From an uncultured virus (IMG/VR IMGVR_UViG_3300043786_001842) (taxonomy: Duplodnaviria > Heunggongvirae > Uroviricota > Caudoviricetes), in the IMG/VR virus record IMGVR_UViG_3300043786_001842: DNA of 64,000 nt. The stretch is one strand, 5' to 3'. Position 1 is the first letter of the stretch. Every line of letters starts with the position of its first letter. The position numbers and the translations under genes were made by a program. Shown here one piece after another: positions 4,522 through 60,981 of the stretch. The notes beneath the pieces are model-generated. The model made no database searches and was not told the DNA's origin. It saw nothing but the letters and a program-made list of their open reading frames with translations.

Positions 4522-4566
4522 TCCGCAAATGACTGGGCGGGGTGATCCCCGCCCATGGAGAATCTG

Positions 4567-25416: not shown

Positions 25417-27899
25417 GCCTGAGATTCAGGCTCTTCCAGATCCGCGTAGCCCTCCAAGTTCACGTAACGGAGCAGCTCTTTGAAGAATACTTCGAGCACC
25501 TCTTCGGGATCGGCGCTGCCGGCGAATCTCTTGACGACTTCGGACTTGTACGGACTGGTTCGGTCGTACTCGACGGTCACGTATACGGACCCCGAGCGCA
25601 CAACCTGGAGCATGAGCTTCTCGTCCCCCTTGAAATCGCCCTCGACCGGATAGCCGAGGGCGATGACGATCTTGTTGGGGGCCGGGCTCCCGAGCCATGT
25701 CGTGATCTTGTCGAAGTCGATGGTCATCACCTTCGTGCCGCGGCGCATGGTGATGCGCGAGAGGAAGTCCTTGTTTTTCTCCAGCTCCTTCATGATGCCG
25801 GCGAATACTTCACGGGTCTCCTCCTCCTCGATGCGCTGGACATCGGCTGCGTGTCGGCGCGCGGCCAGCGTGAGTTTGGCCATGTGTTTGAGACTTGTCA
25901 TACGTTTTTCGTCCTTGCGTAGGTTGTGTGATCGCAGACCCGCAAAACGGGTCTGCGGTGGAGGCTCCTCAGAGCCGTTGGCTGTTCACAAAAAGATGAT
26001 ATAAGCACCAATCGGCAATATGGAAAGAAGCCCCGCAGGGCTTCTTTCTCTCCGTCAGAAATTACCGATGTGGGTCACTTGGGCGTGGGCTCTCGCCGCC
26101 AACCCTGCGGGACGTCGTAGCAGAGGAAGTAGTCGTGTGGTGCGAGCCCGCCATCCTCCTCGGGGAAGACCTCGCTGAGGTCGCCGCAGTTCGGCACGCA
26201 CGGGCTGCAGAGCCTGGCGTGCACCGTCCTTGGGGACTCGAACACCCACAGGAGCTCGGCAGCGCCGAGCGTGGTGGTCTGCACCCGCAGCTTTCCACCC
26301 TCGATCTGGGCCTCGTAGTAGAAGACCTCGTCCTCGACGCAGTCCGACCACCGCTCGATCCGTCGCGCGATCTCGTCGTCGGCGTCGTCGGCGTCGAGCT
26401 GCTCGGCCTCCACCATGGCATCGACGTCCTTCCTGATCTCAGCCATGGCATCCGCGTAGCTGAGATTCTCTCCGTTGCTCCGAACGCGCTCGACGATTTC
26501 CGGCTTGAGGAGTGCGGCCTGGATGATCCCGTAGCGGATGCCCGTCTCCGGATTGACGTTGCTGTTCATCTCGCCACCTCCGTGTCGCTCGCTGCCGCAC
26601 CGTGCTTCGCGATGAACTCCTCGGGGGTCCAAGTGGAGACGCCATTTTCCAACTTGAGGAGGTACTCGAGCGTGAATACCCCGGGAGTACAGTGGAGGAT
26701 AGTTTGGCGGATCCCGATGACGTCGCCAGACTGGTACGTGGCCTTGACCCGCTCCCCCATCCGAAACTTCGGCATGGGGGCTTTCGAGAAGGGTGACTTC
26801 ACGTCTGCTTCGTACTGGCGGTAGTTCATCCACTCCTGCTCGCCGACGTTGCGCCCGACGACCGGGTTCACGACGTCGGGGGGCGTCATCGGGACCTGCA
26901 CGAAGAGGTCGAGGTCGCCCTGACCGGCGGACCGCACCAGCTCGACGCGGTGGGCGCCTCGGTCCGCGTACTTTGTGAAGTCCTCGACGGCCCAATCCAT
27001 GCGGTCGCGCGATTCCCACAGTCGACCGATTCGGTCACTCATGCGTGTTTCTCCTTCTTGAATTGATGAATTCCGTTGGCCAGAATCACAATGGTCCTTC
27101 CGTCCACCCCTTCGAGCGACTGAAGGATTTTTCTGATCTGGAAGTGCGGTTGTGTCTCTCCATCTCCAGCACGCACGCTCTTTCTCTTGGACCAGCGCAC
27201 CGTGTTCGTCTTCCAGTGCTTCGGCAGCAGATCGCGAAGGCCGATGGAATACATGTCGCGCGTGACGAACAGGTGGTCGGTCTCCCTGATGATCTCCAGC
27301 ACGATCGGCTGGGAGAATCTGGAGGCGAGATTCGGACGCTCATTGACGAGTAAGTATTTTGTTGTCATATTGAGCGACGGTGGAGCTACCCACCGTCGGA
27401 ACGTGTGTTAGAAACCGAGGTCGGCGAGCGTCAGGCCGAGAGCGGCCAGGACGGCCGTCAGGTTCACAGCCGGGTCGCGCTCTTCGACGATGGCGCGGGC
27501 GGCAGCGAGTCGCTGCTGGGGGGACAGCGACATCGGTGGGACCTGTTCGAACGGACCGGCCAGACCGGCTCGCTCGAGGTTGGTATTGAGCGCGGCTCCG
27601 GTGTAGCCCGGGTCAGAGACGACTACGACGCCAGCGATCTCCCCGTTCACCTTCACGATGATTGGGAGGCCAGCCAGACCGGTGCTCCTGCCGCCACCGT
27701 TCACGGCCTCGTGCGGGTACAACGCTCCGAGGTAGACCATGCCACCGTCCTGGCGGGCGATTGCCGCGGGCGCTGCCAACTCCGCCGCGGGCGCTGGCTC
27801 GGGGTCCTCCGGTTGGAGGAACGACGCGAACTCGGGCTCCTCGTTCTGCGCTGCTGAATCGATGGACTCGATTGGTGGGTAATGTGGCTTCTTGCTCAT
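25413..27899 (-). CDS. Run of hypothetical ORFs (25413-25901, 26075-~26568, 26566-27042, 27039-27368, 27408-27899)
   Basis: Packed ORFs, several with ATGA overlaps. Confidence 0.55.
26026..26048. terminator. Hairpin terminator
   Basis: AAGAAGCCCC-GCA-GGGGCTTCTT. Confidence 0.65.
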
Positions 27900-30225
27900 T
27901 CATGATCCTCTTCAGGTGTGTTTTCGAGGCGCAGTCCGATGGCCTCGAACAGTGCTCGCAGGCCGGCGACCGGCCGGGTGACGCCGCTGCCGCGCGGCTC
28001 GATCCTCTCCACCGAGAACGGGTCTTGGCGTAGGAGGAGGTCGGCGATCATGCCCTCTCGGCTGACGTCGTCCGTCGCGTAGAGGCGCAGGAGCCGCTGT
28101 AGCTCGTCCGGCTCGTTGGCGATCAGGAGGTTCTGCAATTCTTGTTCGCCAAGCCTGATGGGCGTGCTGGAGTGGTGCTCAGTGTTGCCCCGGATGCCCC
28201 TGGAGTTCTTCGTCGGCACCCCTCCGATGGACAGGTGCTTCGCGGACCGGGCGGAGAACTTGCCAGTCGGCTCGTGCCGGAGCTTTATGTAGTAGTTCCA
28301 GCCGAGAACCATCGGCTCCTCGATTCCGACAAAGCGGTCGCGCTCGATCCCGAGGCGGGCGTACGTCTCGTGGAGCCCCTCCAGAGAGATGACGCCGTGG
28401 AACGGGGGCTGGTGGATGAAGATCGGCTCCCATCCGGTGACCACTTCCTCCACCATCGCACGGGCGTCGTCTGGCCCGACGTTGGCCCGCATCCACGCAG
28501 CCTGAGCGGGCGATGTCATCTCGAGGAAGGTCATCATCCGCTCGTACGCCTCCTCCGGCGTCGGGTCCGCCCGCATCGCCGTGGCGACCTTGCCCGCCAG
28601 GAAGTTCAGCTCGCACTCGTACAGCTGGGCCGGGTTCAGGCGGTTCACCACGCCGAGACTGTTCACCACCAGCTCGGCGCGCTCTCCGCCGACCGTCGTC
28701 GGCATCTCCGCGTCGGGGCGGATTTCCGCGATGACTCCTTTACCACCATCGTTTGTGTTCCATGCGAATCGCAACTTCGCACGCGTCCTCCCCGTCATCG
28801 GTGGGGCGACTGCCTCCGCTTTCACGGAGGACCAGACTATATCACGGTCTCGCTCATGCGCGAGACCCCTCCTGTTTCCGCCCGCTTGGGCGTACTCTAC
28901 TCGGTTCGCCTTTCGGCGCCTTTCGATAGTCGTTGGACCTTCGTCCTATAGGACGCTTGGCTGCTGATTACCCAATCCCCGCTTTCTCGGACCATCACGC
29001 TCGCTTTTACAAGCCACGTTGTGGTAGAAGGGCTTCAGGGCGTCCCAGCAATTAAGGAGGTTTTCACCGAAGGGTCACCCCCTCGGGCGGCAATTTTTTA
29101 CCGATTGGAGATCTTCGATCCATTGATGATCTTATTCCGGCGGGCGATCGTGAAGATCAGCACGGTGCCGTCGAACTCGCTCTTGTCGTACCGCCACTTC
29201 CGCTCCGTCGCGTTCGAGCAGCGGCGGTGCCAGTAGGCGACGTCCGCCGTGTAGCCCGTTCCGGCCTGCCCCTGCATGTACGGCCCGAAGGTCGCCGTCA
29301 CCCACTCGCGGAACTCGCGCGCCCGGACCTCGTAGCCGAGCATCTGCGCGTGGAAGCCGTGTTTCTCGAGGTCGGTCTCCGACTGGTTCGAAAATACGTC
29401 GATGTCCATGACCACGCCGTCGCTGTAGAACGGCGTATCGATATCCCAGTTTATCTGCGAGAGCTGGGGGGTCGACAGGTCGAACAGTATGGACTCGTGG
29501 TTGATCCGCCGCCGCGCCAGCAGGACGCCGTCGTGGATTTCCTCCCCGACGTCCGGGAAGCCCCGGTGGTCGCCGTCGCTGCCGTAGAGGTTGACCAGCA
29601 GGTCGTTGGCGTTCAGAGTCACGGCGACCTTCTCGACGCTGGTGTGGGCGAGGCGCTCGGCCGCCGACTCCGATATCACGAGCCCGTCCTCGTACGTCAG
29701 GCCGTCGAGGTTCATGTAGACGGTGCGGAGATTGACGCCGTACATGAAGTTCCCGTCTGCGTCGTGGCACGGCCATCCCTGCATCACGAAGTCGGCCGGA
29801 AGCTCGGCTTCGGCGCCCTGCGGGGCCTCGTCCATCGCCTTGTTCAGCGCCGAGTTGTCCAGTAGGTAGCCGTAGGACTCGGTCAGGTGGTGGGCTGGGG
29901 CCGCGAAGTGGATGGCAGCCGTGCCGTCGGCGTACTCCAGAGCGTAGATGCGCTGGAGAGGGTTCTTCTGGAAGAAGCCGATGACCCGGGCGTCCTGGGG
30001 GACCGTCCTGACGGCGGTGGTGTACGAGCCGAACTTGTTCTCGAATCGCGAAAAGACGCGCGGGCGCTCGGGTGCGTCGAGCACGACCGTCTGGCCGATG
30101 TGCGAGCAGAACATATTTGTGCGACCGCCGTCGCACCTGTTGACCATCGGTTGAAGCAGCTCCTCCGCGAGGAAGTGGTGGTTCCCATCGAAGTCTTCGT
30201 GGTCGCGGATTACTGTGCCTGGCAT
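27896..30225 (-). CDS. rpoB: Multisubunit RNA polymerase beta subunit, C-terminal half (non-virion type); exons 30225-29100 and 28749-27896
   Basis: R.NMFCSH.GQ, GVNLRTVY...YEDGLVIS, spliced GSKISNRYGGKGVI, NSLGVVNRLN, YIKLRH and IRLGEQE. Spliced CDS is 660 codons. Confidence 0.9.
28750..29099 (-). mobile_element. Group I intron, ORF-less (350 nt), in rpoB
   Basis: AATTGCTGGGA, AATCAGCAG, CCAACGACTAT and GATATAGTC. Junction CGG T|AT GGT restores R-Y-G-G-K. Confidence 0.9.
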
Positions 30226-30294: not shown

Positions 30295-32580
30295 CTACAC
30301 CGCGGGGGCCGCCTCGTCCGGGGGCGCCATGAGGGCCGCCTCGTCCGGAGTTCCGGGTAGGGGGACGAGCCCGAGGAGTTCCTCCTCGATCCGGGCATCC
30401 ACGATCTCGCGGAAGGTCGCATCTCCCTCGTACAGGTCCTTCCAGTTCCGCTGGGCGAACTTCTGTGTCGTCCGGCCGTCGGGAGCCTCGATGAACAGGT
30501 GAGCGCCCGCGCCCTTCAGCGCCTTCTGGCTCTTCAGGAAGTTCAGGTTGGTCCAGGCGTTGTCGAAGCCTGCGTCCGTCAGGACGAGCTCGAACTGGCG
30601 GCCGTCGTAGGAGAGACGCGACTTGACAATGGTGCAGCGGACGACCTTGCCGGGGATCGCGAAACCCTCGTCGCGAGCGTTGGTGAGAGACGAGGACGGC
30701 GCCATCTTCAGGAAGTAGTCGGAGTACTGCGGAAAGCCGGTGCCGCCGGGGCAAGTCTCGTCCATGTTGAGGTACTGGATGCGCTTCGGCTTGGGCGGGC
30801 CGCCGGAGGGGCCCGGGTCCACGCGGATGTGGTTCACGGCGTAGATCGTGATGTTGGGCTCGCCGATCATTCCCGCGAGCCGCTGGGCGAAGGCGTTGTT
30901 GGCCTTGGCCTGGGCCCCGGACTCGTACAGCAGGGAGCCCATCTCCTCCTTCCCGTTCATCACGTCGTCGCTCTGCAAGGCTGCCACGGTGTCGATGATG
31001 ATCACGGTCGGGATCGGGACGCGCTCCCCGGTGCGCGGGTCGTCGGTCCAGATCTCGGAGTTCGGGTCGGCCATCATCGCCAGCTTGGTGTTGATGATCC
31101 GCTTCACGAAGGCGTAGATCTTCTCCAGGGGGACGGGAGTGAAGCGGCGGTATCGGCGCTTGACCTCCTCCAGCGATAGGCCGGTGATGTCCGCGGTGCG
31201 CTCATCCGACCACGCGTTCTCTAAATCGAAATGGAAGACGCTACCCTGTTCGTGAACGCTCACTAGAGCGAACGCCTCCTGGACACAGAGGGTCGTGTTG
31301 TGCGTGACGATGTAGCTGTCGGTGAGGTAGAGGTGCTCAGGGTCCTCGACCATGATGCACATCTGCTCCTCCGCTACCTGTTCTTTGGCGACAGATACGA
31401 TGTAACGAGCTGGCGCATTCTTTGTCGAACGGCTCCACGTCGACGCTTTTCTCGACGTGAAGAATGGATTGAAGTTCACACGGACGTTCACGGTGTACTC
31501 CACCGGGCGTCCCTCCATAGTGCGGTCGTTGACTGCGAGGATCGCCACGCCACCCATCGACTGAACGAGCGAGACGACATCATCGGCGAGCCTGGGGGAC
31601 GTCGTGTGGAACCGGGTGCGGTTCTTACTGTTGCTTCCGTCTGTGTCCATGAGACCATTGAGAATGGCGAGCCGATTCTCGTAGGAATCGTACAGGTACT
31701 CATCAGGGATGAATTTCGATTTGGAGAGGACGTCGAGTCTGAGACGCGCGATCTCCGACGTAATCCGATTGAGATACCCACCCGTCCCACTCTGCTCCGA
31801 ATCGCTGATGTAGCAGTGAGTGCAGGATCCGGTGTCACGTTTGCGTAAAGCGAACCCGTCAGTGAGAGACTTGGCAACGCGACCGACAACCTCGTCGTAG
31901 TCGTTCTCATTCACGGCAAAGTCGATCCGGTGGTCAGCCAGCGAACCATTCCCTATCAGGACGCCGAGCAAGTAAGGATCGATCACGTGGTCAACAGCCC
32001 GGTACTCTACCGGGGCACACAGCGGGACGCGGTAGTTGTACCCGCGACCGTAGGAAAGATTCCCGTTCAGAAGATCGGCGGTGGTCTTGACCACCCATTT
32101 GTGTTTTCCGGGCCTACAGACCTTCCAGAGGTGATCAATGCCGCATCTGGTTGAGGTGCCGTCCCGAAAAGTCACGCGGTACACATCCTTCACCCCCTGC
32201 GGGTAGATACCGATGACCTTCGTCGCCTTGCCGGAACGGGAGAAAACCTCGTCACCGACGCGCAGATTGCCGAAACGCTTGGGGCCGCCGGGAGTCTGTA
32301 CCTGGGTGGACACCGGCTGCTCTTTTCCACAGCCTGTGTAGCCGATCTTCATGATCAGCTTGCCCATTGGCATCCCGCTGAACAATTCGTATTCACCCGT
32401 ATCGTGGTTCATGAAGTACCGGGCGTTGTAGAAGTCCAGCACGTCGATCCCGGTGGGCACTGGGCGGAATGCGCGAGAGTCCTTGATGCCCATTTCACCG
32501 ACGATGCCGTCGAGGGCATCCATGAGGCCACCACTCGGGGCGGCCACGGGTGCAGCAGTCTTCTTTTTGGCCTGAGCCAT
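30295..32580 (-). CDS. recA: RecA/UvsX-like recombinase with intein
   Basis: PTGIDVLD, Walker A GYTGCGK|TT split by the intein, FDLEN, Walker B IIIDTVA, VNHIR, PGG.G and IVKSR. Confidence 0.88.
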   Translation of the reverse strand: MAQAKKKTAAPVAAPSGGLMDALDGIVGEMGIKDSRAFRPVPTGIDVLDFYNARYFMNHDTGEYELFSGMPMGKLIMKIGYTGCGKEQPVSTQVQTPGGPKRFGNLRVGDEVFSRSGKATKVIGIYPQGVKDVYRVTFRDGTSTRCGIDHLWKVCRPGKHKWVVKTTADLLNGNLSYGRGYNYRVPLCAPVEYRAVDHVIDPYLLGVLIGNGSLADHRIDFAVNENDYDEVVGRVAKSLTDGFALRKRDTGSCTHCYISDSEQSGTGGYLNRITSEIARLRLDVLSKSKFIPDEYLYDSYENRLAILNGLMDTDGSNSKNRTRFHTTSPRLADDVVSLVQSMGGVAILAVNDRTMEGRPVEYTVNVRVNFNPFFTSRKASTWSRSTKNAPARYIVSVAKEQVAEEQMCIMVEDPEHLYLTDSYIVTHNTTLCVQEAFALVSVHEQGSVFHFDLENAWSDERTADITGLSLEEVKRRYRRFTPVPLEKIYAFVKRIINTKLAMMADPNSEIWTDDPRTGERVPIPTVIIIDTVAALQSDDVMNGKEEMGSLLYESGAQAKANNAFAQRLAGMIGEPNITIYAVNHIRVDPGPSGGPPKPKRIQYLNMDETCPGGTGFPQYSDYFLKMAPSSSLTNARDEGFAIPGKVVRCTIVKSRLSYDGRQFELVLTDAGFDNAWTNLNFLKSQKALKGAGAHLFIEAPDGRTTQKFAQRNWKDLYEGDATFREIVDARIEEELLGLVPLPGTPDEAALMAPPDEAAPAV
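31297..32322 (-). mobile_element. Class 3 intein with LAGLIDADG endonuclease (342 aa)
   Basis: Starts EQPV and ends VTHN|T. Shows DHLW, QMCIMV and THN (WCT triad), and LAGLIDADG motifs LLGVLIGNG and ILNGLMDTDG. Confidence 0.88.
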
Positions 32581-32666
32581 GCGTTCACTCCTTGATGAGA
32601 GATATAAAGTCGTTTTCAAACTTTTCGTCCGAAAACTTTTGAGTCAGATCGGAACTGCAGAGATGG

Positions 32667-34142: not shown

Positions 34143-34200
34143 GGTCTCTCCTTGTGTGGTTGATGACATGAGAATGATATGCGGGCGGTGCCCTGCAACG

Positions 34201-34230
34201 AAAAAAGAAAGGGCGGCTGGAGCCGCCTTT
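34201..34230 (-). terminator. Intrinsic terminator after purA-like gene
   Basis: AAGGCGGCT/AGCCGCCCTT stem followed by TTCTTTTTT on the - strand. Confidence 0.7.
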
Positions 34231-34292: not shown

Positions 34293-35495
34293 TTACACGA
34301 GGCGCGTCACACCCTTCCGAGTTTTGGTGTGTGCTGTATAACCAACAAATATCGGCACATCTGAGAACGCACATGCGCCTTGCAGTGCCTTGAGAGCGTC
34401 CGAAGGTGGGAGGCCCCTCCAGTCATCTGTCAGCGTCGGGGTGTCGGTGCCCGCATCGGCCCAGGTAAGGGCAATGGAAGGTCGACCTAGCTGGGCGGAA
34501 CGAATCTTCTTCGCTCTGGCCAGGTCGGTGCGGACGGCATATTCCAGCTGGTGGACCACCAGAGGACCGTAGCGTAGACCGTGCTGCCAGTCATTGTGGA
34601 TGTTGGTCGTGTCCACGTCCAAAGCCGGGGGTGGACCCTTCTTCCACTCGCGGTCGCCGACCCAGTCGTAGTACATCGGACCCGCGCCGTGGCGGGTGGT
34701 GTACGAGCGTGTCACGTACACCGGATCTATCGCACGAGCGGCGCCGGCGACTGCCAGCACATTCTGCAATCCAGTATTGCTCGGGGTGACGTGCGGGTAG
34801 AAGCCGCTGTTTTGATCTAGCAGCAAACCCTGAGCCCCCTCAAATATGCAGGGAAGCGATTGGGAAACCACACCCTCGTCAGTACGCATGCTGACGAGAT
34901 CGAACATTGCAGCGGACGTCTCGATGAATGCGTGATCGCTGGCATTGTGCTCGTCGCGCGAACCGACAAGCGGAAACAGCCGACGAACAGCGGCGAGGAA
35001 TGTCATGATTTCGGATGGAGTCATCTCCCCCAGAGCACGCATCGTCAGGCGCATCCACGCGCCGCGCCGCACCGCATGGTTGATGCCATGACCAACAGAG
35101 CCGTGTCGTCCTTCTCCACGCTGGTCGCGAGCTAATTCGTGTTGCCTGTTAGCCATGACATCAATCGGAAGGACCACTTCGCATTCTGGGTCAAAGCTGA
35201 TCGGCGGGATGAATCCGAAGGTGTCGGCGAATACCCCAAGCTCTTCCATGAGGAAGATCGGGTTGATCAGCATAAATCGGGAAAGGTGTGTGTGCAAGCC
35301 GGCCACGGCGCCCGCCCCGATCTGGGAGCAAACGTGGCGAGCGCCATCCGGCGTGACCACCGTGTGGCCCGCCTGCGAGCCACCATTGAATCTTACGACG
35401 GAGGAGTACTCCCCAGTGGAGGCGAAGTAGTCGACCATCTGACCCTTACCTTCGTCGCCGAAGCCAGCTCCTATTACTGCTACGTGGCCCCTCAT
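34293..35495 (-). CDS. Divergent adenylosuccinate synthetase-like protein
   Basis: GAGFGDEGKG, RFNGGSQAGHTV, HGSVGHGI, FEGAQGLLLD, PHVTPSNTG and YTTRHGAGP. C-terminal loops diverge from PurA. Confidence 0.85.
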   Translation of the reverse strand: MRGHVAVIGAGFGDEGKGQMVDYFASTGEYSSVVRFNGGSQAGHTVVTPDGARHVCSQIGAGAVAGLHTHLSRFMLINPIFLMEELGVFADTFGFIPPISFDPECEVVLPIDVMANRQHELARDQRGEGRHGSVGHGINHAVRRGAWMRLTMRALGEMTPSEIMTFLAAVRRLFPLVGSRDEHNASDHAFIETSAAMFDLVSMRTDEGVVSQSLPCIFEGAQGLLLDQNSGFYPHVTPSNTGLQNVLAVAGAARAIDPVYVTRSYTTRHGAGPMYYDWVGDREWKKGPPPALDVDTTNIHNDWQHGLRYGPLVVHQLEYAVRTDLARAKKIRSAQLGRPSIALTWADAGTDTPTLTDDWRGLPPSDALKALQGACAFSDVPIFVGYTAHTKTRKGVTRLV

Positions 35496-35554
35496 TTGTT
35501 TCCCCTCTGTAAATGTCAGTCTAGCCGAAGTCGGCTAGACTGACTGTGCTACAC

Positions 35555-36490
35555 TCAGAAGCGCTTCACAGCACCAGTGCTGCCGGAGTTGGTAACAGCG
35601 ACGGTGCCGAGCCCGGAAACCGCCTTGGCCACGACCATCGAGGTATCGCCTCCCCAGCTGGCGACGACATCCGAGACGCTCCGGCCTTCGACCACCTCGA
35701 TGGTCGAGATCATGACCTCCGAGAGGTTGTTGATGTTCGCCAGCGGGATGGCCCGCTGCCCCATGAGGCTCGTCCAACTTTCTACAACGCGGCGAGGGTA
35801 CGTGGCCATGTGGTTCCCCTGCTCCACCATGATGTGGAACACCTCCCACTGCTGGGAGAGAGCGGCGAGAAGAGCGGCGTTATTCGGCACGGACTGTGGC
35901 GTGCTGCCGAAGACCAACTCGATTTCAGCAGGAGTGAGGTTCGGCGGGACTTCCTCGTCACCTACAGTGAACAGGTATCCCTTCTTCCCGCGCTTGCTGT
36001 ACGCATCGTGCGCCACACGCGTCAGCGCCGCATACCACACGAGATTATTAGACTCCGAACTGTTGGAGCCCCCGCCCGTACCGACGCGATACATCTGCTC
36101 GATCTGCGGCGTCAACGAGGCAGTGTCGGACTCGAACTGCGACATCTGCAACCAGGCGGCGCGGTCGGCCTCCACGTCGCCGAAGCCGGCAAAGGCGAAT
36201 TGGGGGCCGGGGATGACTTTGCGGTTGAGCAGTTCTTCGAAGATCTGACCGAGGCCCTTGGTCACGATCTGGCGGGAGAGCGAACCCATGGAACCGGTCA
36301 GGTCGATGCCGCTCAGCACGGGGGTCGTGATCGGATTGACATCGCTGTCACGTGCTTCGCGGATCTGGAACTTCTTCGGATTGAGATTGTCATGCAGCTC
36401 CGATGCCGTGAAGATGTCGCTCGTGCTCTTCGCGGAAGCGGTAGACCGATAAGCAGCCCAGTCTTTACTGCTATACGAGGTGGAACCCAT
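35555..36490 (-). CDS. vWA (MIDAS) domain protein
   Basis: DLTGSMG MIDAS motif, GDV.AD, QFES, GGGSNSSES and FTVGDE. Confidence 0.8.
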   Translation of the reverse strand: MGSTSYSSKDWAAYRSTASAKSTSDIFTASELHDNLNPKKFQIREARDSDVNPITTPVLSGIDLTGSMGSLSRQIVTKGLGQIFEELLNRKVIPGPQFAFAGFGDVEADRAAWLQMSQFESDTASLTPQIEQMYRVGTGGGSNSSESNNLVWYAALTRVAHDAYSKRGKKGYLFTVGDEEVPPNLTPAEIELVFGSTPQSVPNNAALLAALSQQWEVFHIMVEQGNHMATYPRRVVESWTSLMGQRAIPLANINNLSEVMISTIEVVEGRSVSDVVASWGGDTSMVVAKAVSGLGTVAVTNSGSTGAVKRF

Positions 36491-36498
36491 TTTCTCTC

Positions 36499-37494
36499 CT
36501 AGAGTTTGGGTACGTTGAACTTGACGAACTTGCGCTCGCCAAATGCGCTATCACGGGCCTTTTCCCACTGGGAATAGAGCTCCATTGCTGATGAGGCGGT
36601 GAATGGTGCGGACAGGAAATCCGCGAGTTGAGTTGGCACGTCCTTTCGCATGCGCAGTTCGGTTGCCGATGGCACACCTAGAATTTCGATAGCAGTGTGT
36701 CGAGCCAGCTCGAAGTCTAGCCGCTTATCCGCTCGTGAAGCCAGAAGAACATCCGGCGGGCACAGCCGGACGGATCTGGCTGGGAGCGCAACAAACCGCT
36801 CGCCCGAAGTTCTGGCGTACCACCACCCGCCGTACAGGTGGAGGGAGTGGTCATCCGTGTTGACGAACAAACTGTCTACAGAGATGTCCCCGTGGACGAT
36901 GCCGCGCCACTCCAAGTAGCAGAGTAGGTGCATCAATCGCCCGATCATCCAGGCGGTGTGGACCGCCGGCATCGGCCCGTGTAGATCTAAGAGGGCGCGC
37001 AGCGGACGAACGTCGGGCTCCTTGGAGAGCACGACAATGGTTGGCGGCAGTCTCCACGACGCCGTCTGCGGCACCTGCCGCGGCAGCAGCTTGAGATTGG
37101 TGTCACGAGTACCAATCGGGCCGGGGTGCAGACGATTGGCCTCCATCAACGCCCGGCCCGCCTCGCCGAGATCGGCGAAAGGCGCGTCGAGCAGATACAG
37201 GACACGCCCGCGGCTGACGAACATGCGGCCGACCTCGAGGTTGCGAGCGAACTCGTACTTCAGACGCAGCGTGGTCCCATCGAATGCGAAGGTGACGTCA
37301 CTCCCGTTGTCCCACGGCTCAGATGCTTCCACCTTCTTGATCGCCAACTCGTACAGGTCCTTAAGGAGCTGGAAGTCTGCGGTGGTCCCACCTTTATCGG
37401 GATGGTGCAGCTTTGCAAGCCTGCGGTACTGCGTAGTGATATGCCTCGCGGAACCGTACTCAAACAGCTCCTCAGGCCGTGTTGCATCGATCAT
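36499..37494 (-). CDS. J-domain fused to protein-kinase-like domain
   Basis: YRRLAKLHHPDKGG (HPD motif) and GIVHGDIS catalytic-loop-like motif followed by LYGGWWY. Confidence 0.8.
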   Translation of the reverse strand: MIDATRPEELFEYGSARHITTQYRRLAKLHHPDKGGTTADFQLLKDLYELAIKKVEASEPWDNGSDVTFAFDGTTLRLKYEFARNLEVGRMFVSRGRVLYLLDAPFADLGEAGRALMEANRLHPGPIGTRDTNLKLLPRQVPQTASWRLPPTIVVLSKEPDVRPLRALLDLHGPMPAVHTAWMIGRLMHLLCYLEWRGIVHGDISVDSLFVNTDDHSLHLYGGWWYARTSGERFVALPARSVRLCPPDVLLASRADKRLDFELARHTAIEILGVPSATELRMRKDVPTQLADFLSAPFTASSAMELYSQWEKARDSAFGERKFVKFNVPKL

Positions 37495-37580
37495 GTGGCG
37501 ATCTCCGTCTCTGGGTAATACGATGTGGCCCCATCCCTTTCAGGATGGGGATTTACATTCGTTGCGCGTCTACGCCGCCC

Positions 37581-38198
37581 TCATGTGAGCGGGTGAACCG
37601 CGACGGCAAAGCGTTTCGGCTCGTGGCGTCTGGTGGGGCCGTAGACGTCGAAGTCTTCGATGACCCGCCAGAAGTCGGTCGACTTCTGTAAAGGCACGAT
37701 CTGCTTTGCCAGGAGATCCACGTAGTAGGCGTAGCGCCCCTCGGCGAGCGCCCGGCCGACCACGCCCGACCAGAAGTTCTGCCCGAGCTGGGTCTGCTCG
37801 TCGTCGGTCAGGATCGTCTCCTTCTCCGGAAGCAGGATTTCGAAAAAGACGTCCTTGGCCAGGTGCGCCGTCTCGGGGTAGATCTGATCGGCCCAGACGA
37901 TGGCCTGGGAGACATAGCTGCCACGCACGATCCTCTTCGCGTCGGTCTCGTAGCGCATGTAGTAGCCGACCCGGCGGTCCTCGCCGTGGAGAGCGAAGAA
38001 GTGAGTGCGGAATCGGTACAGGACGACGCTCTCCGAGAGCCGCCGGACCTCCTGTTTGAACTTATTGCCAGCGAGCTTTGCATAGATGCGCGCGTTCTCG
38101 CTGGGCTTGTTCAGCAGGTAGTTGGTCAGGGGATCGATCAGCCTCGGCAGCTCGTTGAGCAGCTCGACATGCAGAAATTCTTCTCTGAAGTGCTCCAT
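37581..38198 (-). CDS. Hypothetical protein (possible GNAT-like fold, possible virion internal protein)
   Basis: AAGGAG RBS, N-terminal LNELP, and ILTDDEQTQLGQNFW motif. Confidence 0.6.
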   Translation of the reverse strand: MEHFREEFLHVELLNELPRLIDPLTNYLLNKPSENARIYAKLAGNKFKQEVRRLSESVVLYRFRTHFFALHGEDRRVGYYMRYETDAKRIVRGSYVSQAIVWADQIYPETAHLAKDVFFEILLPEKETILTDDEQTQLGQNFWSGVVGRALAEGRYAYYVDLLAKQIVPLQKSTDFWRVIEDFDVYGPTRRHEPKRFAVAVHPLT

Positions 38199-38251
38199 GG
38201 GGCTCCTTTTGAAAGATCCCCATCCCGCAGGGGGATGGGGATGGGGATGGA

Positions 38252-38898: not shown

Positions 38899-39288
38899 CT
38901 AGTCGAGATCTCTCAGCATGGCCGCACCGTTCAGCACTTCCCGCACCACCGCCGACAGCGTGTTTGGGCGGAACGGCTTCACGACGTAGCCGCCCACGCC
39001 GAATTGCATTAGACGCTGAATCCTCGAGCGCTCAGCCTCCGCCGTCAACATCACGACTGGCATCCGTCTCGTCCGCGGGTCTCCGCGCAGCCGCCGCAGA
39101 AACTCCTCTCCGTCGACGTTGGGCATGTTCCAGTCGCAGATGACGAGATCGATGTTCTCCGCGGCGAGTTTTCCCAGAGCGTCGGCGCCGTCGACGGCAT
39201 CGACGGACTCGTGTCCCATCCACCGGAGCACGGCGGTCACGGCCAGTCTGATCGATGCTGCGTCGTCCACGACGAGGATCTTGGCCAT
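38899..39288 (-). CDS. Stand-alone CheY-like response regulator receiver
   Basis: ILVVDD, ICDWNMP (phosphoacceptor Asp), MLTAE and VKPF. Confidence 0.9.
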   Translation of the reverse strand: MAKILVVDDAASIRLAVTAVLRWMGHESVDAVDGADALGKLAAENIDLVICDWNMPNVDGEEFLRRLRGDPRTRRMPVVMLTAEAERSRIQRLMQFGVGGYVVKPFRPNTLSAVVREVLNGAAMLRDLD

Positions 39289-39291
39289 ACC

Positions 39292-39864
39292 TCAGTCCTC
39301 TTTGATGTCTTCGGCCCGGATGCGATCGAACCGAATCGCCATGGGCGCCCCGCCGAATGGCGGTGACAGCATGTCGCCCGCCCGCCGAACCCAGGCGCGG
39401 ACCTCAGGCGTCTCCGGGCCGACCTTGCTACAGATGCTCAGGTGGGCCTGGAACTTGTCGAAGCTGTGCTGCGCGCCGGCCGCCGCGAGCATCCTATTCG
39501 CAGCATCGGCCTCGGGCGACTCCAGCTTGAAGACCGCGTACCCGTCCTTGTCGTGCCCCTCCCAGTACTCGACTCCTGTGATCCAGGCCACGATATGGGG
39601 TCCGAGGACGGGCCGGACCTTGGACGGGTCGAGGCCGGCCTTCCTCGAGTAGATGAGCGTTACGTGAGCCTCGTCGCGGAGCGTCGTCGGGTCGAAGGGA
39701 GGTCTCGTCAGGTCCAGGAGATCCATCATGCGCCGGACCTCTCCGGCGGCCGGCAGCATGCAGACGTAGGCCGTGCCGTTGTCGGTGAGAGCCGTGAGAT
39801 CGATCGTGACCTCGCTTATGGAGGCGATGAATGCCTCCATCAGTTCGATGCTTTCTTCCATCAT
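39292..39864 (-). CDS. 2H phosphoesterase, Acb1 (anti-CBASS)-like
   Basis: HVTLIYSR and GAQHSFDKFQAHLSI parallel T4 Acb1 HSTICYSR and GATHDFDDYTPHITL as recalled. Confidence 0.75.
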   Translation of the reverse strand: MMEESIELMEAFIASISEVTIDLTALTDNGTAYVCMLPAAGEVRRMMDLLDLTRPPFDPTTLRDEAHVTLIYSRKAGLDPSKVRPVLGPHIVAWITGVEYWEGHDKDGYAVFKLESPEADAANRMLAAAGAQHSFDKFQAHLSICSKVGPETPEVRAWVRRAGDMLSPPFGGAPMAIRFDRIRAEDIKED

Positions 39865-40589
39865 TTCCGCGCCTCCGGCGGCCTGTCCGCGCTCACGCGC
39901 AGCAATTCGGTTGTGTCGATGAGATCGCTCTTCAGGCCGGCGGCCAGGAGGATCGTGTCCATGTAGTTCAGGCCGGGCTGGTTCCTCGAGTCGCCCTTCA
40001 GATCGGCGTAGCGGACGAAGCCGTCCCGCTCCACCGCGTGATACATCTCCAGCCTCTTGTCCCTGTTGTCGGCGCGCGGCCCGAGGACCTCCCTCAGGAC
40101 GGCCTCGGCGCCGACGGTCTTCAGGGCGTACGCCTCCTCGTCCGCGACCCGGCCGATCGCATCGCCGCCGGAGAGCTGGCCGGTCAGCGGGTTGCGCTTC
40201 TGGGCCTCGGTGCTGTATGACGTCTTCTTCGCGAGGATCTGCTGCAGCCGGCGGACGTGCATCCAGCCGACCGGGACCCTGTTCCGACTGCGGTACTCCT
40301 CTCCCTCGTGGTTGAAGTACACGTACTGGTGGAGCTCGACGCCGACGAGCTTCGCGGCCTTCTCGATCTGGGAGAGTCCGGGCTCATTGTGGAATTGCTG
40401 GACGTCCAGGTAGAAGTGGCGGTCCTCGTCACTCTCCATGTCCTTCAGCCACGCCTCGAACTGGGCCGCCGACATGCCGGCGAACTGCTTCTTGTACGTC
40501 ACGGCGTTGGCGCCGGTGGCGTCGAGAGTTCCCATGACATCGAGGACGAGCGCCTCGATCTTCTTGCGTTTAGCAGGTGTTAGTGGCAT
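39861..40589 (-). CDS. Second RNA polymerase beta C-terminal fragment (probably virion RNAP)
   Basis: VPVGWMHVRRLQQ, RNPLTGQ, GRVADEEAYAL..GA..VLRE and RADN align to the last ~240 aa of beta. Confidence 0.8.
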   Translation of the reverse strand: MPLTPAKRKKIEALVLDVMGTLDATGANAVTYKKQFAGMSAAQFEAWLKDMESDEDRHFYLDVQQFHNEPGLSQIEKAAKLVGVELHQYVYFNHEGEEYRSRNRVPVGWMHVRRLQQILAKKTSYSTEAQKRNPLTGQLSGGDAIGRVADEEAYALKTVGAEAVLREVLGPRADNRDKRLEMYHAVERDGFVRYADLKGDSRNQPGLNYMDTILLAAGLKSDLIDTTELLRVSADRPPEARK

Positions 40590-40632: not shown

Positions 40633-42569
40633 TTACTTCCTACCGCTGAGGAGGGCCACAGGGCCCTCCTCGGTTTCTATGATGCCGAAACCTTGACTGA
40701 ACTCGATTCTGTCACAGCTGGGGGCCACCCTCAGCGAACGCTTCACTCCGTTCGCTTCCCTCCCAAATAGCACACAACCTTCCTTTATTTCCCACTCCAC
40801 CAATAGAGTGGTCATGACGCGGCTGTCGATCTCCAATTTTACTGACATTCGAATCTCCTACGACAGAGCGTCCGGACCATCCGGTTTCGCTTGTCTGACA
40901 GAGAAATGATATCGGGCCGAGCGGTAGGGGTTTTACGTACCAGAATTACCTTGTGTATATAGGCTTGGAATTTCATGGATGCAACATCGAGGACGAGTGC
41001 CTCGATCTTCCTGTTGGCATAGTGTTTCCAAGAAAAGAGGGGTCCAGGCCCCTCCCTCCTAATGCAGCACTAGGAGCTTCAGCTCCCGCCGCATTTCAAC
41101 ATCGATTCCGACGTTCCGGAGCCGGCCGTAGACCTCGCGGCCGCAGCCGGTCGGGTCGTACACCAGGAGTTGCTCCTGGTGGCCGTGATCGTCCATCGCC
41201 TCTATATGGAGGACAGATCCCTCCAACCACACCGCCAGAAGCGGCCACCCTGTGTGGTGGTGGACAACCGCCCCGATATTCTTGAGCATGTCGTCCCGGG
41301 ACTCATCGCCATCCCAGTTGAGCAGTGTATCCATTTCCATCTCCTACGACAGAGCGTCCGGACCATCCGGTTTCGCTTGTCTGACAGAGAGATGATATCG
41401 GGTCAAGCATCGGGGGCCACACGCCCGTGCCAAATTGCGCTTCTAAAAGGGGCTACCACCTTGTGGAACTGGAGTTCACCAGTGTCGATAGAGAGGGCTC
41501 TGGCGGCGAAGGTCTCCTCCACCAGGATGCGAAGCATCTCCGTCTCTGCGCCGAACTGGATTGCGCCGAGGTGCGTGCCACTCTCGTCGTGGAAATGGTA
41601 TGTCGTCTGATCGACGCTCACCGCATAGAACGCCGCGCACAGCATCTCGATCGTTTCTATCACAGCACTCTCCTTGCCAAATAGCTCAAGAGAATGATAT
41701 TGAACACAGCATTATTTCAGATGTGTTCTTTATAGAGACCGTATCACGACGTCGAGCTCACGAACTCCAGCTTCTTCACCGGGATGTCCTCCGGCCGGTC
41801 GTAGAACCCGCTGGTGCAGCGGTGCGTGTACGCGATGTACCCGCCCTTGGCGCCCTTCTTCTTGGGCTCGAAGTAGGCCACGGTGCACTGGAGCTTGTCC
41901 TTGGGCACCCTCAGGCGAGACGACTCCTCGCGCGTCAGGCTGCGCCTCTCGTACTTGTCCAGCCACGACGCCTCCTCCAGCATCTCGGGGTCGAAGTTGG
42001 CCTCGCGGAGGCTCTTCCGATTGACGGCGTTCTTGCCGAAGATGTGCCAGGCCTTGCCGTAAAGGACGTGAGCCCAGCTCTGACCGTAACGCTTTTTGAA
42101 CTCGTCCTTGTGCTTCATGATCCACTCCTCAGCACCGGGCGCGTCGGGGGCCTCCTCGGCGAGGACGTCGGCCGCGCACTCTATGGCAAGGAACAACTCC
42201 GCATCGATCTCATAGAGTTCCGTCATTGTCCCTCGGCTCCTCATTCTCTTCCAGTATCGAGCGCTTCCACCGTTTGTTGGCGACGCACGAGGCGGCGGCC
42301 CAGTAGTAGCCCTCGATTAGACCATCGGTTTCCACGAGACCCGTGATGCAGGTCTCCAGCGAGGTTTCGATGGCGCAGATGGCTGCGCTGCCGACTCGCC
42401 GCTCCGACTCAATCTTGCACGCAAGATTGATGACCGAGCTGAATTTATCCTCCAGCTCTCGCATCGCCCTCTGCATTTTCGTTTCCGCCTCTTCGAATGC
42501 CGCCGGCACCTCGCATTCCGAGCAGCCCGGCTTCAGCCGCTGCCCTTCCACGACAAGTTTGAAGGTCAT
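40633..42569 (-). CDS. Small hypothetical ORFs (40633-40848, 41059-41340, 41403-41663, 41744-~42226, 42210-42569)
   Basis: Several have their own promoter motif, RBS and terminator. Confidence 0.55.
40853..41402. repeat. 64-bp direct repeat (40853-40916 and 41339-41402) containing promoter motif and RBS
   Basis: atctcctacgacagagcgtccggaccatccggtttcgcttgtctgacagagaRatgatatcggg, one mismatch. Confidence 0.92.
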
Positions 42570-42925
42570 TCGATCGATTCCTCTGTCATTTTCTGCACTT
42601 CCGTTGTGATAAGTTCTGCAATTCGATCAAGATGACACGGCCTCGGGGCACACCAGCACCGGAGGGCGATCGACTCGCCGGCTGCGACCCGGCGGGCCAG
42701 GTCGTCGATCGCCCTGAAGATCGGGCCGCGGCGCACCATGTCGCGTGTCACCATTGCGTTGTACTTGCTGATGCATGCGGCACGCGCCGCGTCATCCAAA
42801 TGGTCATGGAGGGCGAACGGGTTCCCGAGGGCCGCGTTCGTCCTGTCCCCGTCTATCACGGTCTCGCCAGGAGCAGCCGCCACGCCGCCCTTTCGTCGGC
42901 TGACGACGCGGACGGACCCGCTCAT
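42566..42925 (-). CDS. DUF4326-like protein
   Basis: GNPF and L.CWCAP.PCH motifs. Confidence 0.75.
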   Translation of the reverse strand: MSGSVRVVSRRKGGVAAAPGETVIDGDRTNAALGNPFALHDHLDDAARAACISKYNAMVTRDMVRRGPIFRAIDDLARRVAAGESIALRCWCAPRPCHLDRIAELITTEVQKMTEESIE

Positions 42926-60500: not shown

Positions 60501-60981
60501 CCAGCACTGCGCTCTCGATGTCCCGGATGCGTTTGGCACTTCTGAACTCGATGGTGTGCTCTTGACCGTCGCGCCACACGGTCGCCTTCAGATACGTCGA
60601 GGTCGCCGTGACCGCCTTCAAGCCGGTTCCGTGTAGACCGCCGGAAATTCCATAGGACGTACCGAACTTTCCGCCTGAGTGAGCTTTGGTAAGAACGACT
60701 TCGAGGGTGGACAGACCGGGGTGCTTGGAGTGCTCCTCGACCGGGATGCCACGCGCCTCATCTTCGACACTGATGAGATGGGATGCAGCGTCAACGGAAA
60801 TGGTGATGGTGCTTCCATGCCCATTCATGTGCTCGTCAATCGCATTATCGATCACCTCGCGCACCGCTACTGCCACCCCGTCATCATCCGCGCTTCCAAG
60901 GTACATTCCAACACGAGCCCTGATAGCATCGAGGATCTCCAAAGTGTCGATGTCTGCTGCAGTGTATGTCTTTTTCGACAT
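54596..60981 (-). CDS. gyrB: DNA gyrase subunit B; exons 60981-59935, 58643-58380, 57151-57076, 56028-54596, plus a mini-intein
   Basis: GHKL motifs EVIDNAIDE, HSGGKF and GGLHGTG. Spliced FKGQSKGTLSN, VEGDSAG, KGKPLN and DADIDG|SHI. Joined CDS is 940 codons in frame. Confidence 0.92.
55421..55849 (-). mobile_element. Mini-intein (143 aa) in GyrB TOPRIM
   Basis: CFVGDT start, CTPDH block B, VYDLTV..HHNF and YVHN|S. No endonuclease domain. Confidence 0.92.
56029..57075 (-). mobile_element. Group I intron 3 of gyrB (1047 nt)
   Basis: AACTGCCAGAAA, AACCGGCAA, TCAACGGCCAT and GACATGGTC. Junction CCG T|TA AAC gives P-L-N. Confidence 0.85.
56191..56880 (-). CDS. Intron-encoded NUMOD4-HNH homing endonuclease
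   Basis: ENWKP...YRVSNLGRV, VHRLVVEAFL and VNHIDGSKRNN..SNLEWVS.KEN..HA. Confidence 0.92.
   Translation of the reverse strand: MKSLSISNPQHVAFLTENYLHKSNPEMAHELETTVGAVTGLLQRLNLRRPIRKSQVETLPGENWKPCVHHPGYRVSNLGRVANGDTLLIQTINGRGYMQVKMYDKSGERKSERVHRLVVEAFLPKPRFGQSQVNHIDGSKRNNAASNLEWVSGKENVQHAVANGLVRRRSGTEHPMCKYPESLIRQICLKLAAGETPPVIERELGIRRGYVSTIASKRIWKKVSDEYFR
57152..58379 (-). mobile_element. Group I intron 2 of gyrB (1228 nt)
   Basis: P1 GAGGGT/GCTCTC, AATTGCTGGAA, AATCAGCAG, TCAACGACTAG and GATATAGTC. Junction GGT|GAT restores VEGDSAG. Confidence 0.9.
57379..58185 (-). CDS. Intron-encoded AntA/AntB antirepressor-domain protein
   Basis: VNARELHAFLEVGKDFSNWIKDR...DYHISLDMAKELAMVERNERG..ARKYFIECE. 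GAAGGA RBS. Confidence 0.85.
   Translation of the reverse strand: MDTQDEILMKLTEQPVGNAVVPTVNARELHAFLEVGKDFSNWIKDRVEKYEFVENQDFTTALQNGSAVGNRGGGSNRIDYHISLDMAKELAMVERNERGRAARKYFIECERQLRERQASSATRSRLEIARELVATLEREEALREQVRRSVMFRRSEITPGNQHISVKEIKAIYAPYLAEDKIRLILNYYGHPKTNFQFGDSENASFPTFERNGVDDALARFRIEASHRISTSGMTVILEHDCLLNATVRVSKDDAISYLGYSEGDFEG
58644..59934 (-). mobile_element. Group I intron 1 of gyrB (1291 nt)
   Basis: P1 AAGGGT/GCTCTT, AATTGCTGGAAA, GATCAGCAG, TCAACGACTAT and GATATAGTC. Ends ...ATAGG|ACA TTG. Confidence 0.88.
58665..59630 (-). CDS. Intron-encoded endonuclease: three Zn-binding repeats plus Vsr/EDxHD-like nuclease domain
   Basis: Three H..CG...CPxC repeats, then FDF...IEYDGRQH...D..K..FC..G..LLRIPY. 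Confidence 0.85.
   Translation of the reverse strand: MPAKMTHEQFAEIVRDRGQNQYRLLDLYQTTHHKIRFEHIECGYIFEMRPSRFVCGDRCPKCGNAVRKTHSEYVAELEKHFPGEYLVLGKYVNTMTPILTRHQCGYEWEISPNTMLRRVRKPHAGCPQCNKKHRRTHDDFVREIAVLVGTEYSVLGKYRNFREKVEFRHETCGQTFDMSSGLFLGGCRCPYCALRNKTSKAVQAIENWLTSHGRSYEREVALEGCVFQRQLKFDFLVDESLLIEYDGRQHFIVGPNWKVDMLVMQERDAFKTNFCQERGYPLLRIPYVSDVVQVLEDVLVRGMDPWSVTEREFGRLELDGE

Follow-up and report, generated by a model that had tools for sequence, protein, structure and literature searches.

A divergent PurA-like enzyme encoded with vWA and J-domain/pseudokinase partners in a conserved module of phages and bacteria

Introduction

What does an enzyme built like adenylosuccinate synthetase (PurA) do once its aspartate-binding loop appears to have been replaced, and why should its gene stand beside those for a vWA protein and for a J-domain protein with a kinase-like fold? 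These questions arise from three adjacent genes at positions 34,293 to 37,494 in DNA of an uncultured virus (Duplodnaviria; Heunggongvirae; Uroviricota; Caudoviricetes) held as IMG/VR record IMGVR_UViG_3300043786_001842. The whole stretch analyzed, 64,000 nt in length and hereafter called the window, is large-phage DNA and represents only part of the phage genome. An earlier note on this DNA had described the three genes as a module whose enzyme might ligate a different amine, or a protein, to a nucleotide.

The problem extends well beyond one virus. The PurA-like gene is found in more than 200 sequenced phages, about 200 of which are cluster C mycobacteriophages. According to a 2026 survey, phages have 481 PF00709 homologs, of which only 147 are PurZ and most of the others are unexplained (PMC12884076). 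Were a PurA-type enzyme to use a new second substrate, the reaction would itself be new, and laboratory phage-host pairs allow a direct test. We found no published description of the module in the literature covered, which did not include subscription-only papers.

A PurA relative with an exchanged aspartate pocket

The enzyme matches Pfam family PF00709 (Adenylsucc_synt) with an E-value of 1.9e-37, but the match is limited to aa 6-275, its N-terminal two thirds. This portion and the fold are shared with PurA (EC 6.3.4.4; E. coli structures 1ADE, 1KJX, and 1CG3). The best match in the PDB is E. coli PurA (E 2.7e-22), whereas the solved phiVC8 PurZ matches just at E 1e-4 over ~70 residues. Scores against the NCBIfam PurA equivalogs NF002223 and TIGR00184 are 108.5 bits versus a cut-off of 402 and 98.7 versus 395.55, and NCBIfam PurZ (NF038379) gives 56.4 bits versus 300. 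The profile phrog_1211, which is labeled '2-aminooxy adenylosuccinate synthetase', matches at E 3.4e-55.

Every motif quoted in the earlier note is present in the sequence. The enzyme carries GDEGKG (aa 13-18), AGHT (aa 42-45), and EGAQG (aa 219-223), and DTTNIHNDWQHGLRYG is found where E. coli PurA has its GATTGRRRRTGW loop. This loop reads T-N-I-H-N-D-W-Q-H-G-L-R in the window and takes the form D-x-T-N-x-x-N-x-W-Q-x-x-L-R in the family, in contrast to the G-x-T-T-G-R-x-R aspartate loop of PurA. The TWAD segment aligns to E. coli T330-K331-L332-D333, with D333 corresponding to D347 of the window protein.

When 166 family open reading frames (ORFs) were aligned to E. coli PurA numbering, the catalytic core proved to be shared with PurA. 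Asp13 is kept in 161 (the other five have gaps; the window residue is D14 in its own count, within GDEGKG), Lys16 in 161, His41 in 163, Gln224 in 162, and Thr239 in 161. Position 333 is Asp in 150 ORFs and Asn in 11, and the R-x-G-x-G-P segment is retained as in PurA. In E. coli PurA, T300, T301, R303, and R305 bind aspartate, and T-K-x-D and S-x-G-P confer guanine specificity. At the aspartate positions the family differs from PurA throughout, because R303 aligns to a gap in 166/166 ORFs, R305 has become Leu, Phe, or Ile, T301 is Gln in 159/166, and T300 is aromatic (Phe, Tyr, or Trp). PurA residues V273, N38, and T129 are likewise exchanged, for His in 163/166, for Gln in 162/166, and for Cys or Val, respectively. 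In the presumed guanine pocket, K331 is Trp in the window, Cys in 106 family ORFs, and His in 51. Residues S414, G416, and P417 are Ala, Thr, and Lys in the window, whereas most of the family keep Ser, Gly, and Pro.

Because the core is kept while the aspartate site has changed in a conserved manner across the 166 ORFs, the phosphoryl-transfer machinery is under selection, and another conserved pocket has taken the place of the aspartate pocket. The alignment establishes that the residues for transfer of a gamma-phosphoryl group from a nucleoside triphosphate (NTP) to a substrate oxygen are retained. The chemistry is probably common with PurA, in that a substrate oxygen is phosphorylated and the phosphate is then displaced by a nitrogen nucleophile. 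Judged by residues and profile scores, the enzyme is neither PurA nor PurZ, and adenylosuccinate synthesis by it is very unlikely.

The bacterial carriers agree with this assessment. In 5/5 module-bearing bacterial genomes, a canonical PurA (496-584 bits) is encoded in addition to the PurA-like copy (52-141 bits). Together with the family-wide loss of the aspartate loop and the low equivalog score, this bears out the suggestion of the earlier note that the enzyme probably does not make adenylosuccinate. In a quick maximum-likelihood tree, 6 canonical and 30 PurA-like sequences fall on opposite sides of a branch with an SH-aLRT value of 100 and a length of 2.39. Phage and bacterial members are interleaved on the PurA-like side, with a long-branch caveat for the sequence from Mycobacterium phage Sebata. 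A search of longer proteins for fusions returned no informative domain fusion, only an intein-bearing PurA-like protein.

The start of the gene deserves comment. A public gene call of 381 aa begins at Met20 and omits the P-loop (protein P0001). A Shine-Dalgarno-like AGAGGGGA precedes the ATG at 35495, and this element and the family alignment support the predicted 400-aa form.

The existing labels of these proteins can mislead. In a tblastn search, relatives of the enzyme occur in 237 phage records, of which 201 are mycobacteriophages. Public records call them 'adenylosuccinate synthase', and RefSeq labels some as '2-aminooxy adenylosuccinate synthetase' (PurZ), as in NC_041993.1 gp263 and NC_070966.1 gp019. 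PurZ and PurZ0 (NF038379; structures 6FM1 and 6TNH), the 2-amino-adenylosuccinate synthetases of Z-genome phages, are likewise phage-borne offshoots of PurA with changed substrate use, and PurZ shares phrog_1211 with the PurA-like family, hence the automatic label. The two differ in that PurZ has Ser13 and uses aspartate, whereas the family here has Asp13 and has lost the aspartate site. In the 2026 survey, Ser replaces Asp13 in all 147 phage PurZ sequences (PMC12884076). Because the proteins of Sebata and of Rhizobium phage RHph_TM30 retain Asp at this position (alignment A1), the RefSeq label looks wrong by the Ser13 criterion. A PurZ label drawn from RefSeq or PHROG would wrongly imply a 2-aminoadenine genome. 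True PurZ phages are absent among the 238 tblastn matches at E <= 1e-3. The window yielded 78 heuristic ORFs, and 64 of their proteins were scanned by Pfam. With respect to the Z-pathway genes (DatZ/MazZ/DpoZ, DutZ/DmtZ), no MazG, HD, or dUTPase domain was found in these 64 proteins, which come from a 64-kb part of the phage.

Linkage of the three genes in phages and bacteria

Conservation of gene order provides the second line of evidence. The family alignment was used to retrieve loci, 80 from viruses and 80 from bacteria, the latter with 82 PurA-like ORFs, and these were searched with our own hidden Markov models. A vWA gene lies directly upstream on the same strand in 65/80 viral loci and for 76/82 bacterial ORFs. 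It is found within 4.5 kb in 74/80 and 76/82, and anywhere in the locus in 76/80 and 76/82. The J-pseudokinase gene is upstream in 33/80 viral loci and for 45/82 bacterial ORFs, and the order kinase, vWA, PurA-like holds in 81/81. The triad is therefore a conserved module in phages and bacteria, in which the vWA and PurA-like genes form an obligate pair with the J-pseudokinase ahead in about half, and the neighborhood that the earlier note had put forward for checking recurs in other genomes. Members occur across many bacterial phyla, in an archaeal metagenome-assembled genome, and in large phages.

Loci that lack the vWA gene are few. Among the viral ones, L029 has 27 nt of upstream DNA, L023 has ~1 kb, and L068 and L076 have >7 kb. 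Of the six bacterial ORFs without it, four have <900 nt of upstream DNA and two are halves of the split locus L153, where 8 kb upstream contain no vWA gene. The arrangement recurs in named phages: Rhizobium phage RHph_TM30 (35% identity, E 1e-67), Vibrio phage Va1 (36%, E 3e-59), and Sebata (28%, E 2e-27) each have a vWA gene immediately ahead of the PurA-like one, and Sebata has a kinase-like gene as well.

In 20 loci, 17 of them viral plus the Vibrio Va1 and Rhizobium TM30 records, the kinase slot is filled by a different, Met/Gly-rich protein. It comprises 200-260 aa and is encoded directly upstream of vWA; its N-terminal half is conserved, and the Met/Gly-rich part is the C-terminal half (examples: L022, L042, L055, L056, L002:3252-3965, and L001:2717-3544). 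This protein has no Pfam match and no HPD motif.

The vWA protein

No Pfam model, including those for vWA domains, matches the middle protein of the module; phrog_2971 does so at E 2e-30. An AF2 model has a pLDDT of 90.5, and Foldseek places integrin beta I-like domains closest (E 8.7e-7, probability 1.00), along with vWA domains of a pilus adhesin and of collagen VI. The MIDAS-type motif is complete, D63-L-T65-G-S67 ... T175-x-G-D178, and is invariant in 46 sequences (alignment A3). We therefore regard this as a MIDAS vWA protein with a predicted metal site. It also has the conserved Met-Gly start, and its C-terminal tail, disordered in the model, closes with a hydrophobic motif.

The family is large. 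At E <= 1e-30, the vWA profile recovers 949 clusters (50% identity) among 1.84 billion representatives, and the clusters nearest to the vWA protein in a protein atlas are all unnamed. From this family, 141 full-length representatives were sampled, each from a separate 50%-identity cluster. D-x-T/S-G-S-M is present in 137/141, and in 68/141 the C-terminus is a [VILMA]-x-x-[LFIMVY] tail, preceded by a linker modeled as disordered. A Met-Gly start occurs in 131/141, and position 1 of the profile is residue 1 in most independent gene calls. A near-invariant N-terminal Gly next to a putative ligase that has lost its amino-acid site is suggestive.

The J-domain/pseudokinase protein

The first protein of the module carries a J-domain at aa ~15-56, with HPD at aa 31-33, fused to a protein-kinase-like fold. 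Pfam DnaJ (PF00226) scores 22.5 bits (E 1.3e-4), which is under its gathering threshold of 27.8, and one relative reaches 23.4 bits; phrog_3043, labeled 'kinase', matches at E 3.6e-5. In the AF2 model (pLDDT 88), helices span residues 16-30 and 38-56, with HPD between them. Foldseek ranks the DnaJB1-PKAc chimera 4WB7 first (E 6.7e-7), with NIK, Aurora B/C, PKC, and ASK1 next (E ~1e-6, probability 1.00).

The motifs that the earlier note had read in the kinase-like domain, HGD and YGG in place of DFG, are indeed present, but the HGD of the window (aa 201-203) is exceptional, and the catalytic loop has the family consensus H-N-A (alignment A4). DFG gives way to an invariant G-G-W-W-Y across the family (YGGWWY in the window), and alignment A4 shows no conserved Lys in the N-lobe strands. 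Because the consensus is H-N-A, DFG is missing, and no N-lobe Lys is conserved, the domain is best read as a pseudokinase. HPD is invariant in 43/43 aligned relatives of the same alignment, and recruitment of DnaK through it, as proposed in the earlier note, is a reasonable inference.

Genomic context of the relatives

ORFs neighboring all loci were clustered and representatives were scanned against Pfam, after clusters 2, 4, 5, 7, 8, 10, and 33 had been set aside as spurious ORFs that overlap module or regulator genes in a different frame or antisense to them. ADP-ribose is a breakdown product of NAD+, and the largest non-module family proved to be an NrtR-type regulator (NrtR_WHD, Pfam E 1.7e-18). 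It is present in 42/80 bacterial loci, mostly divergent from the operon, in Proteobacteria, Bacillota, Acidobacteria, and Melainabacteria. NrtR proteins are described as ADP-ribose-responsive repressors of NAD metabolism (PMC2330246).

In viruses, NAMPT adjoins the module in 10/80 loci, and in five of these ten there is an NMNAT-Nudix gene as well. Because their PurA-like proteins are just 30-49% identical to each other, the ten NAMPT-linked loci represent separate lineages. An ADP-ribose-type sensor and the wiring to NAMPT suggest a previously unrecognized step in NAD+/ADP-ribose turnover. Such a step, if it exists, would be relevant to the contest between phages and bacteria over NAD+. One specific idea, that the module replaces NadE, was dropped: NadE was strong in 3/5 module-bearing genomes and NAPRTase in 1/5, which gave no usable pattern.

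A tentative function and the evidence against it

The explanation we favor, although with restrained confidence, is that the window holds the phage copy of a widespread three-gene module built on a GTP-driven ligase whose nucleophile is not aspartate, and that this module serves NAD+/ADP-ribose turnover and, in phages, counter-defense. In this package we place more weight on the enzymology and the partnership than on the particular NAD role. Much as PurA phosphorylates O6 of IMP, the enzyme would first transfer phosphate to an oxygen on a nucleotide-like substrate. A nitrogen nucleophile other than aspartate would then displace the phosphate, with ammonia, nicotinamide, and a peptide amine as candidates. 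The vWA protein would act as a metal (MIDAS)-dependent adaptor of the enzyme, and the J-pseudokinase would bring host DnaK, by analogy with MoxR ATPases that serve other vWA partners. The module would be active while NAD+ is being broken down, and the phage version would aid replication under host immunity that depletes NAD+.

A more adventurous proposal is that the module constitutes a new kind of nucleotide-coupling system on PurA chemistry. It could take either of two versions, and even when both are counted together we judge it unlikely. In one version, the module would provide a fourth, GTP-driven route that turns the products of immune NAD+ cleavage back into NAD+ or a precursor. The enzyme would phosphorylate ADP-ribose or a nicotinate nucleotide on an oxygen, and nicotinamide or ammonia would displace the phosphate. 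In the other, the enzyme would covalently 'purinylate' the N-terminal Gly of its vWA partner, and the J-pseudokinase would recruit host Hsp70, which would load the complex or reset it.

Several observations weigh against the favored explanation. The strongest context signal among the relatives, the NAD/ADP-ribose one provided by the NrtR-type regulator, NAMPT, and NMNAT-Nudix, is a matter of neighborhood only. No NAMPT lies within 8 kb in 70/80 viral loci, a NAPRTase/NAMPT-family match was found in 0/5 complete or near-complete module-bearing phage records, and no NAD-salvage gene is present among the 64 window proteins scanned. PADLOC returned no match for the three window proteins and two bacterial relatives. 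The NTP preference of the window enzyme is uncertain, its guanine pocket appearing more degenerate than that of the family, and in the quick tree the enzyme forms a long branch of 1.47 changes per column. NrtR-type regulators also control genes outside NAD metabolism (PMC2330246).

The candidate operator sequences are a further difficulty. The published NrtR core GT-N7-AC occurs in 0/39 intergenic regions between regulator and operon. Two lineage-specific palindromes were instead found de novo. TTGCA-N10-TGCAA occurs in 9/39 regions, with 12/17 of its matches in bacterial loci at the operon start, and TGTTA-N8-TAACA occurs in 6/39, with 6/7 matches there. In a control of 30 shuffles, no word appeared in more than three regions. 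Because GT-N7-AC is absent, these palindromes are of another type, with a presumed binding protein; neither of them occurs in the window.

Competing explanations

The plainest alternative would make the gene an ordinary auxiliary metabolic one that encodes a divergent yet functional adenylosuccinate synthetase and raises the AMP supply for replication. The Pfam match, the PurA enzymes that are its best PDB relatives, and the name 'adenylosuccinate synthase' in public records are all in its favor. We nevertheless assign it very little probability, given that the Pfam match stops at aa 275, both NCBIfam equivalog scores are far below their cut-offs, the aspartate loop is missing family-wide, the 5/5 bacterial genomes keep a canonical PurA, and obligate pairing with vWA is foreign to PurA. 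That the enzyme is a PurZ whose product leads to 2-aminoadenine (Z) in a Z-substituted phage genome is barely credible. The phrog_1211 match and the RefSeq labels point to it, but the PurZ score is far below its cut-off and the phiVC8 match short, Asp13 is kept where PurZ has Ser, the aspartate that PurZ still uses has no site here, and no MazG or HD-domain protein was seen among the 64 scanned window proteins. A broader version of this thought is that the module supplies a purine nucleotide with an N6 substituent or some other alteration, which would enter phage DNA and evade restriction. Its location among replication genes would fit, and PurZ, the other phage branch of the family, does such a job according to the 2026 survey (PMC12884076). 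This remains quite improbable, however, since the same module sits on bacterial chromosomes with an NrtR-type regulator in 42/80 loci, the neighborhood clusters link no dedicated polymerase or dNTP-clearing enzyme to it, and the vWA and J-domain pair would have no obvious role.

Two other alternatives concern what the ligase might modify or signal. A protein-directed ligase would join an activated purine nucleotide to the alpha-amine of the vWA N-terminal Gly, or to another protein amine, and so yield a covalent nucleotide-protein conjugate for signaling, sequestration, or counter-defense. This option, one of those named in the earlier note, gains from the Met-Gly start of 131 of the 141 vWA representatives, which are <50% identical to each other, from the strict adjacency of the vWA and PurA-like genes, and from the loss of the free amino-acid site (R303, R305) with a gain of aromatic and Gln residues. 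The Gly may instead serve folding, stability, or translation, and we know of no precedent for PurA-type chemistry on a protein amine, so that we rate the proposal as improbable. Alternatively, the phage could be using a bacterial-type stress or immune module, for example to exclude rival phages or to manipulate host physiology, in which the enzyme would produce a signal or toxin derived from a nucleotide and would not restore a metabolite. Kinase-like and vWA pairings are known from conflict and stress systems such as the TerY-P triad, the module is common to phages and bacteria of many phyla that intermix in the tree, and an Acb1-family gene lies nearby. We consider this rather improbable as well: PADLOC did not match the three proteins, the neighborhood clusters conserve no effector-type domain (nuclease, pore, or NADase), and an NrtR-type repressor as regulator is easier to reconcile with metabolism than with immunity.

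Relation to known systems

The favored explanation, in which the module serves NAD+/ADP-ribose turnover, invites comparison with the NARP systems, the NAD+ reconstitution pathways of phages: NARP1 (Adps and Namat), NARP2 (NAMPT and NMNAT), and NARP3 (PnuC and NadR). Like the module, these are carried by phages. NARP2-type genes stand beside it in relatives, NAMPT in the viral loci noted above and NMNAT-Nudix in several, and bacterial copies of the module face an ADP-ribose-type sensor. The systems differ in that no NARP enzyme is homologous to any module protein. The paper on NARP3 describes PnuC and NadR, and a term search of it gave no mention of PurA or vWA (PMC13464706). None of the three gene pairs was found among the 64 scanned window proteins. 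A role of the module in restoring NAD+ after immune depletion is put forward as a working hypothesis.

MoxR AAA+/vWA pairs (CbbQ-CbbO, NorQ-NorD, and ChlI-ChlD) and the TerY-P triad, which combines vWA, a Ser/Thr kinase, and PP2C, offer a second comparison. The module resembles them in that a gene for a putative MIDAS vWA adaptor lies beside one for a protein that provides or recruits remodeling activity and beside that of an enzyme it may serve, and in that kinase-like and vWA genes occur as a pair. The remodeler here would be host Hsp70, reached through the J-domain, and not an AAA+ ATPase. The module kinase has no catalytic set, and no phosphatase is present.

Layout of the module and its surroundings

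The coordinates of all features are given in Table 1. The three genes are co-oriented and tightly spaced. The vWA gene starts 8 nt past the kinase-like stop, with the Shine-Dalgarno-like AGGAGA ahead of its start. ORFs and folding energies agree with the earlier description of three co-oriented genes between an upstream hairpin and a downstream terminator. Each hairpin was compared with 200 shuffles. The upstream hairpin lies within the 86-nt gap before the J-pseudokinase gene; 4/200 shuffles fold as well, and the coding strand has no T-run after the stem. The terminator-like stem-loop lies 66 nt past the PurA-like stop, and 0/200 shuffles match its stability. A third hairpin, absent from the earlier note, separates the vWA and PurA-like genes. 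It is much stronger than the flanking ones, and here too 0/200 shuffles fold as well.

Table 1. Coordinates of the module genes, hairpins, and other features of the window
Feature	Coordinates	Strand	Details
J-domain/pseudokinase gene	36499-37494	-	ORF, 331 aa
vWA gene	35555-36490	-	ORF, 311 aa
PurA-like gene	34293-35495	-	ORF, 400 aa
Upstream hairpin	37529-37550	-	9-bp stem in fold; folding energy (dG) -16.7 kcal/mol, z -2.55
Intergenic hairpin	35515-35544	-	13-bp perfect stem, 4-nt loop; dG -25.8 kcal/mol, z -7.84
Rho-independent-type terminator	34200-34227, stem 34212-34227	-	GGCGGC-UCCA-GCCGCC then T-run; dG -15.6 kcal/mol, z -4.16
Second GC-rich hairpin	38218-38240		dG -21.1 kcal/mol
Orphan ORF	37581-38198		205 aa
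Receiver-domain gene	38899-39288	-	Stand-alone; PF00072, E 8e-26
Acb1-family gene	39292-39864	-	2H phosphoesterase; PF23474, 40.2 bits vs cut-off 27; also phrog_755 'RNA ligase'
DUF4326 gene	42566-42925	-	E 9.7e-12
RNA polymerase beta-like genes	27896-28825, 29098-30225, 39861-40589	-	Split subunit genes
UvsX/RecA-like recombinase gene	30295-32619	-	Hint and LAGLIDADG_3 matches at aa ~113-374; UvsX-like matches at aa 442-642
GyrB-like gene, whole region	54596-60981	-	In pieces
GyrB-like piece	59929-60981		ATPase and first part of GyrB domain
GyrB-like piece	58374-58640		Rest of GyrB domain
GyrB-like piece	54596-56080		C-terminal part
HNH endonuclease gene	58665-59630		Between GyrB-like pieces
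AntA-like gene	57379-58278		Between GyrB-like pieces
Repeat-module gene	55-4521	+	1488 aa; repeated tail-fiber or head-decoration-like modules
FG-GAP gene	4555-6879	+	774 aa; 13 FG-GAP repeats

The upstream hairpin has a counterpart, the second GC-rich hairpin of the table, and both follow the pattern CCCCATCC...GGATGGGG. The pattern is weakly above chance, as 5/100 shuffles contained as many matches. The two hairpins border the orphan 205-aa ORF. This ORF was considered as a further member of the module and rejected, for it has no relative in 164 loci.

The lower GC content that had been noted for the module is real, if modest: 0.593-0.600 at 34-37 kb versus mostly 0.61-0.70 elsewhere in the window. 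Likewise, GC at third codon positions is 0.67, 0.79, and 0.72 in the three genes versus mostly 0.80-0.92 in larger genes. Because values as low as these recur in several other stretches of the window, low GC is not by itself a sign that the triad is foreign.

All 50 ORFs called between 17.7 and 56.5 kb are on the minus strand, and the module is placed among replication genes for DNA polymerase, ligase, topoisomerase, and recombinase. The window also codes for DNA polymerase, an NAD-dependent ligase, gyrase/topoisomerase II subunits, and a T4-type portal. Because megablast of the region from 28 to 42 kb against phages gave merely three 50-nt chance matches, this phage has no close sequenced relative in the phage collection.

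Upstream of the module, at a distance of 1.8 kb, is the Acb1-family gene, and the receiver domain of a response regulator is encoded directly downstream of that gene. The pair, 1.4-2.4 kb upstream of the module, may form a counter-defense islet. The DUF4326 protein has a domain that is grouped with ADP-ribose-related domains of the NADAR/YbiA type.

The genes for the RNA polymerase beta-like subunits are split, an arrangement we liken to that of phiKZ-like jumbo phages. Between two of the pieces lie the module, the intein-bearing recombinase gene, and several orphan genes. The intein that splits the recombinase gene carries a LAGLIDADG homing endonuclease. The broken GyrB-like gene looks like the result of invasion by a homing endonuclease or an intron, and its region has the lowest GC content of the window (0.50-0.56). 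The gene for the 1488-aa protein and the FG-GAP gene that follows it are among the few plus-strand genes called in the window.

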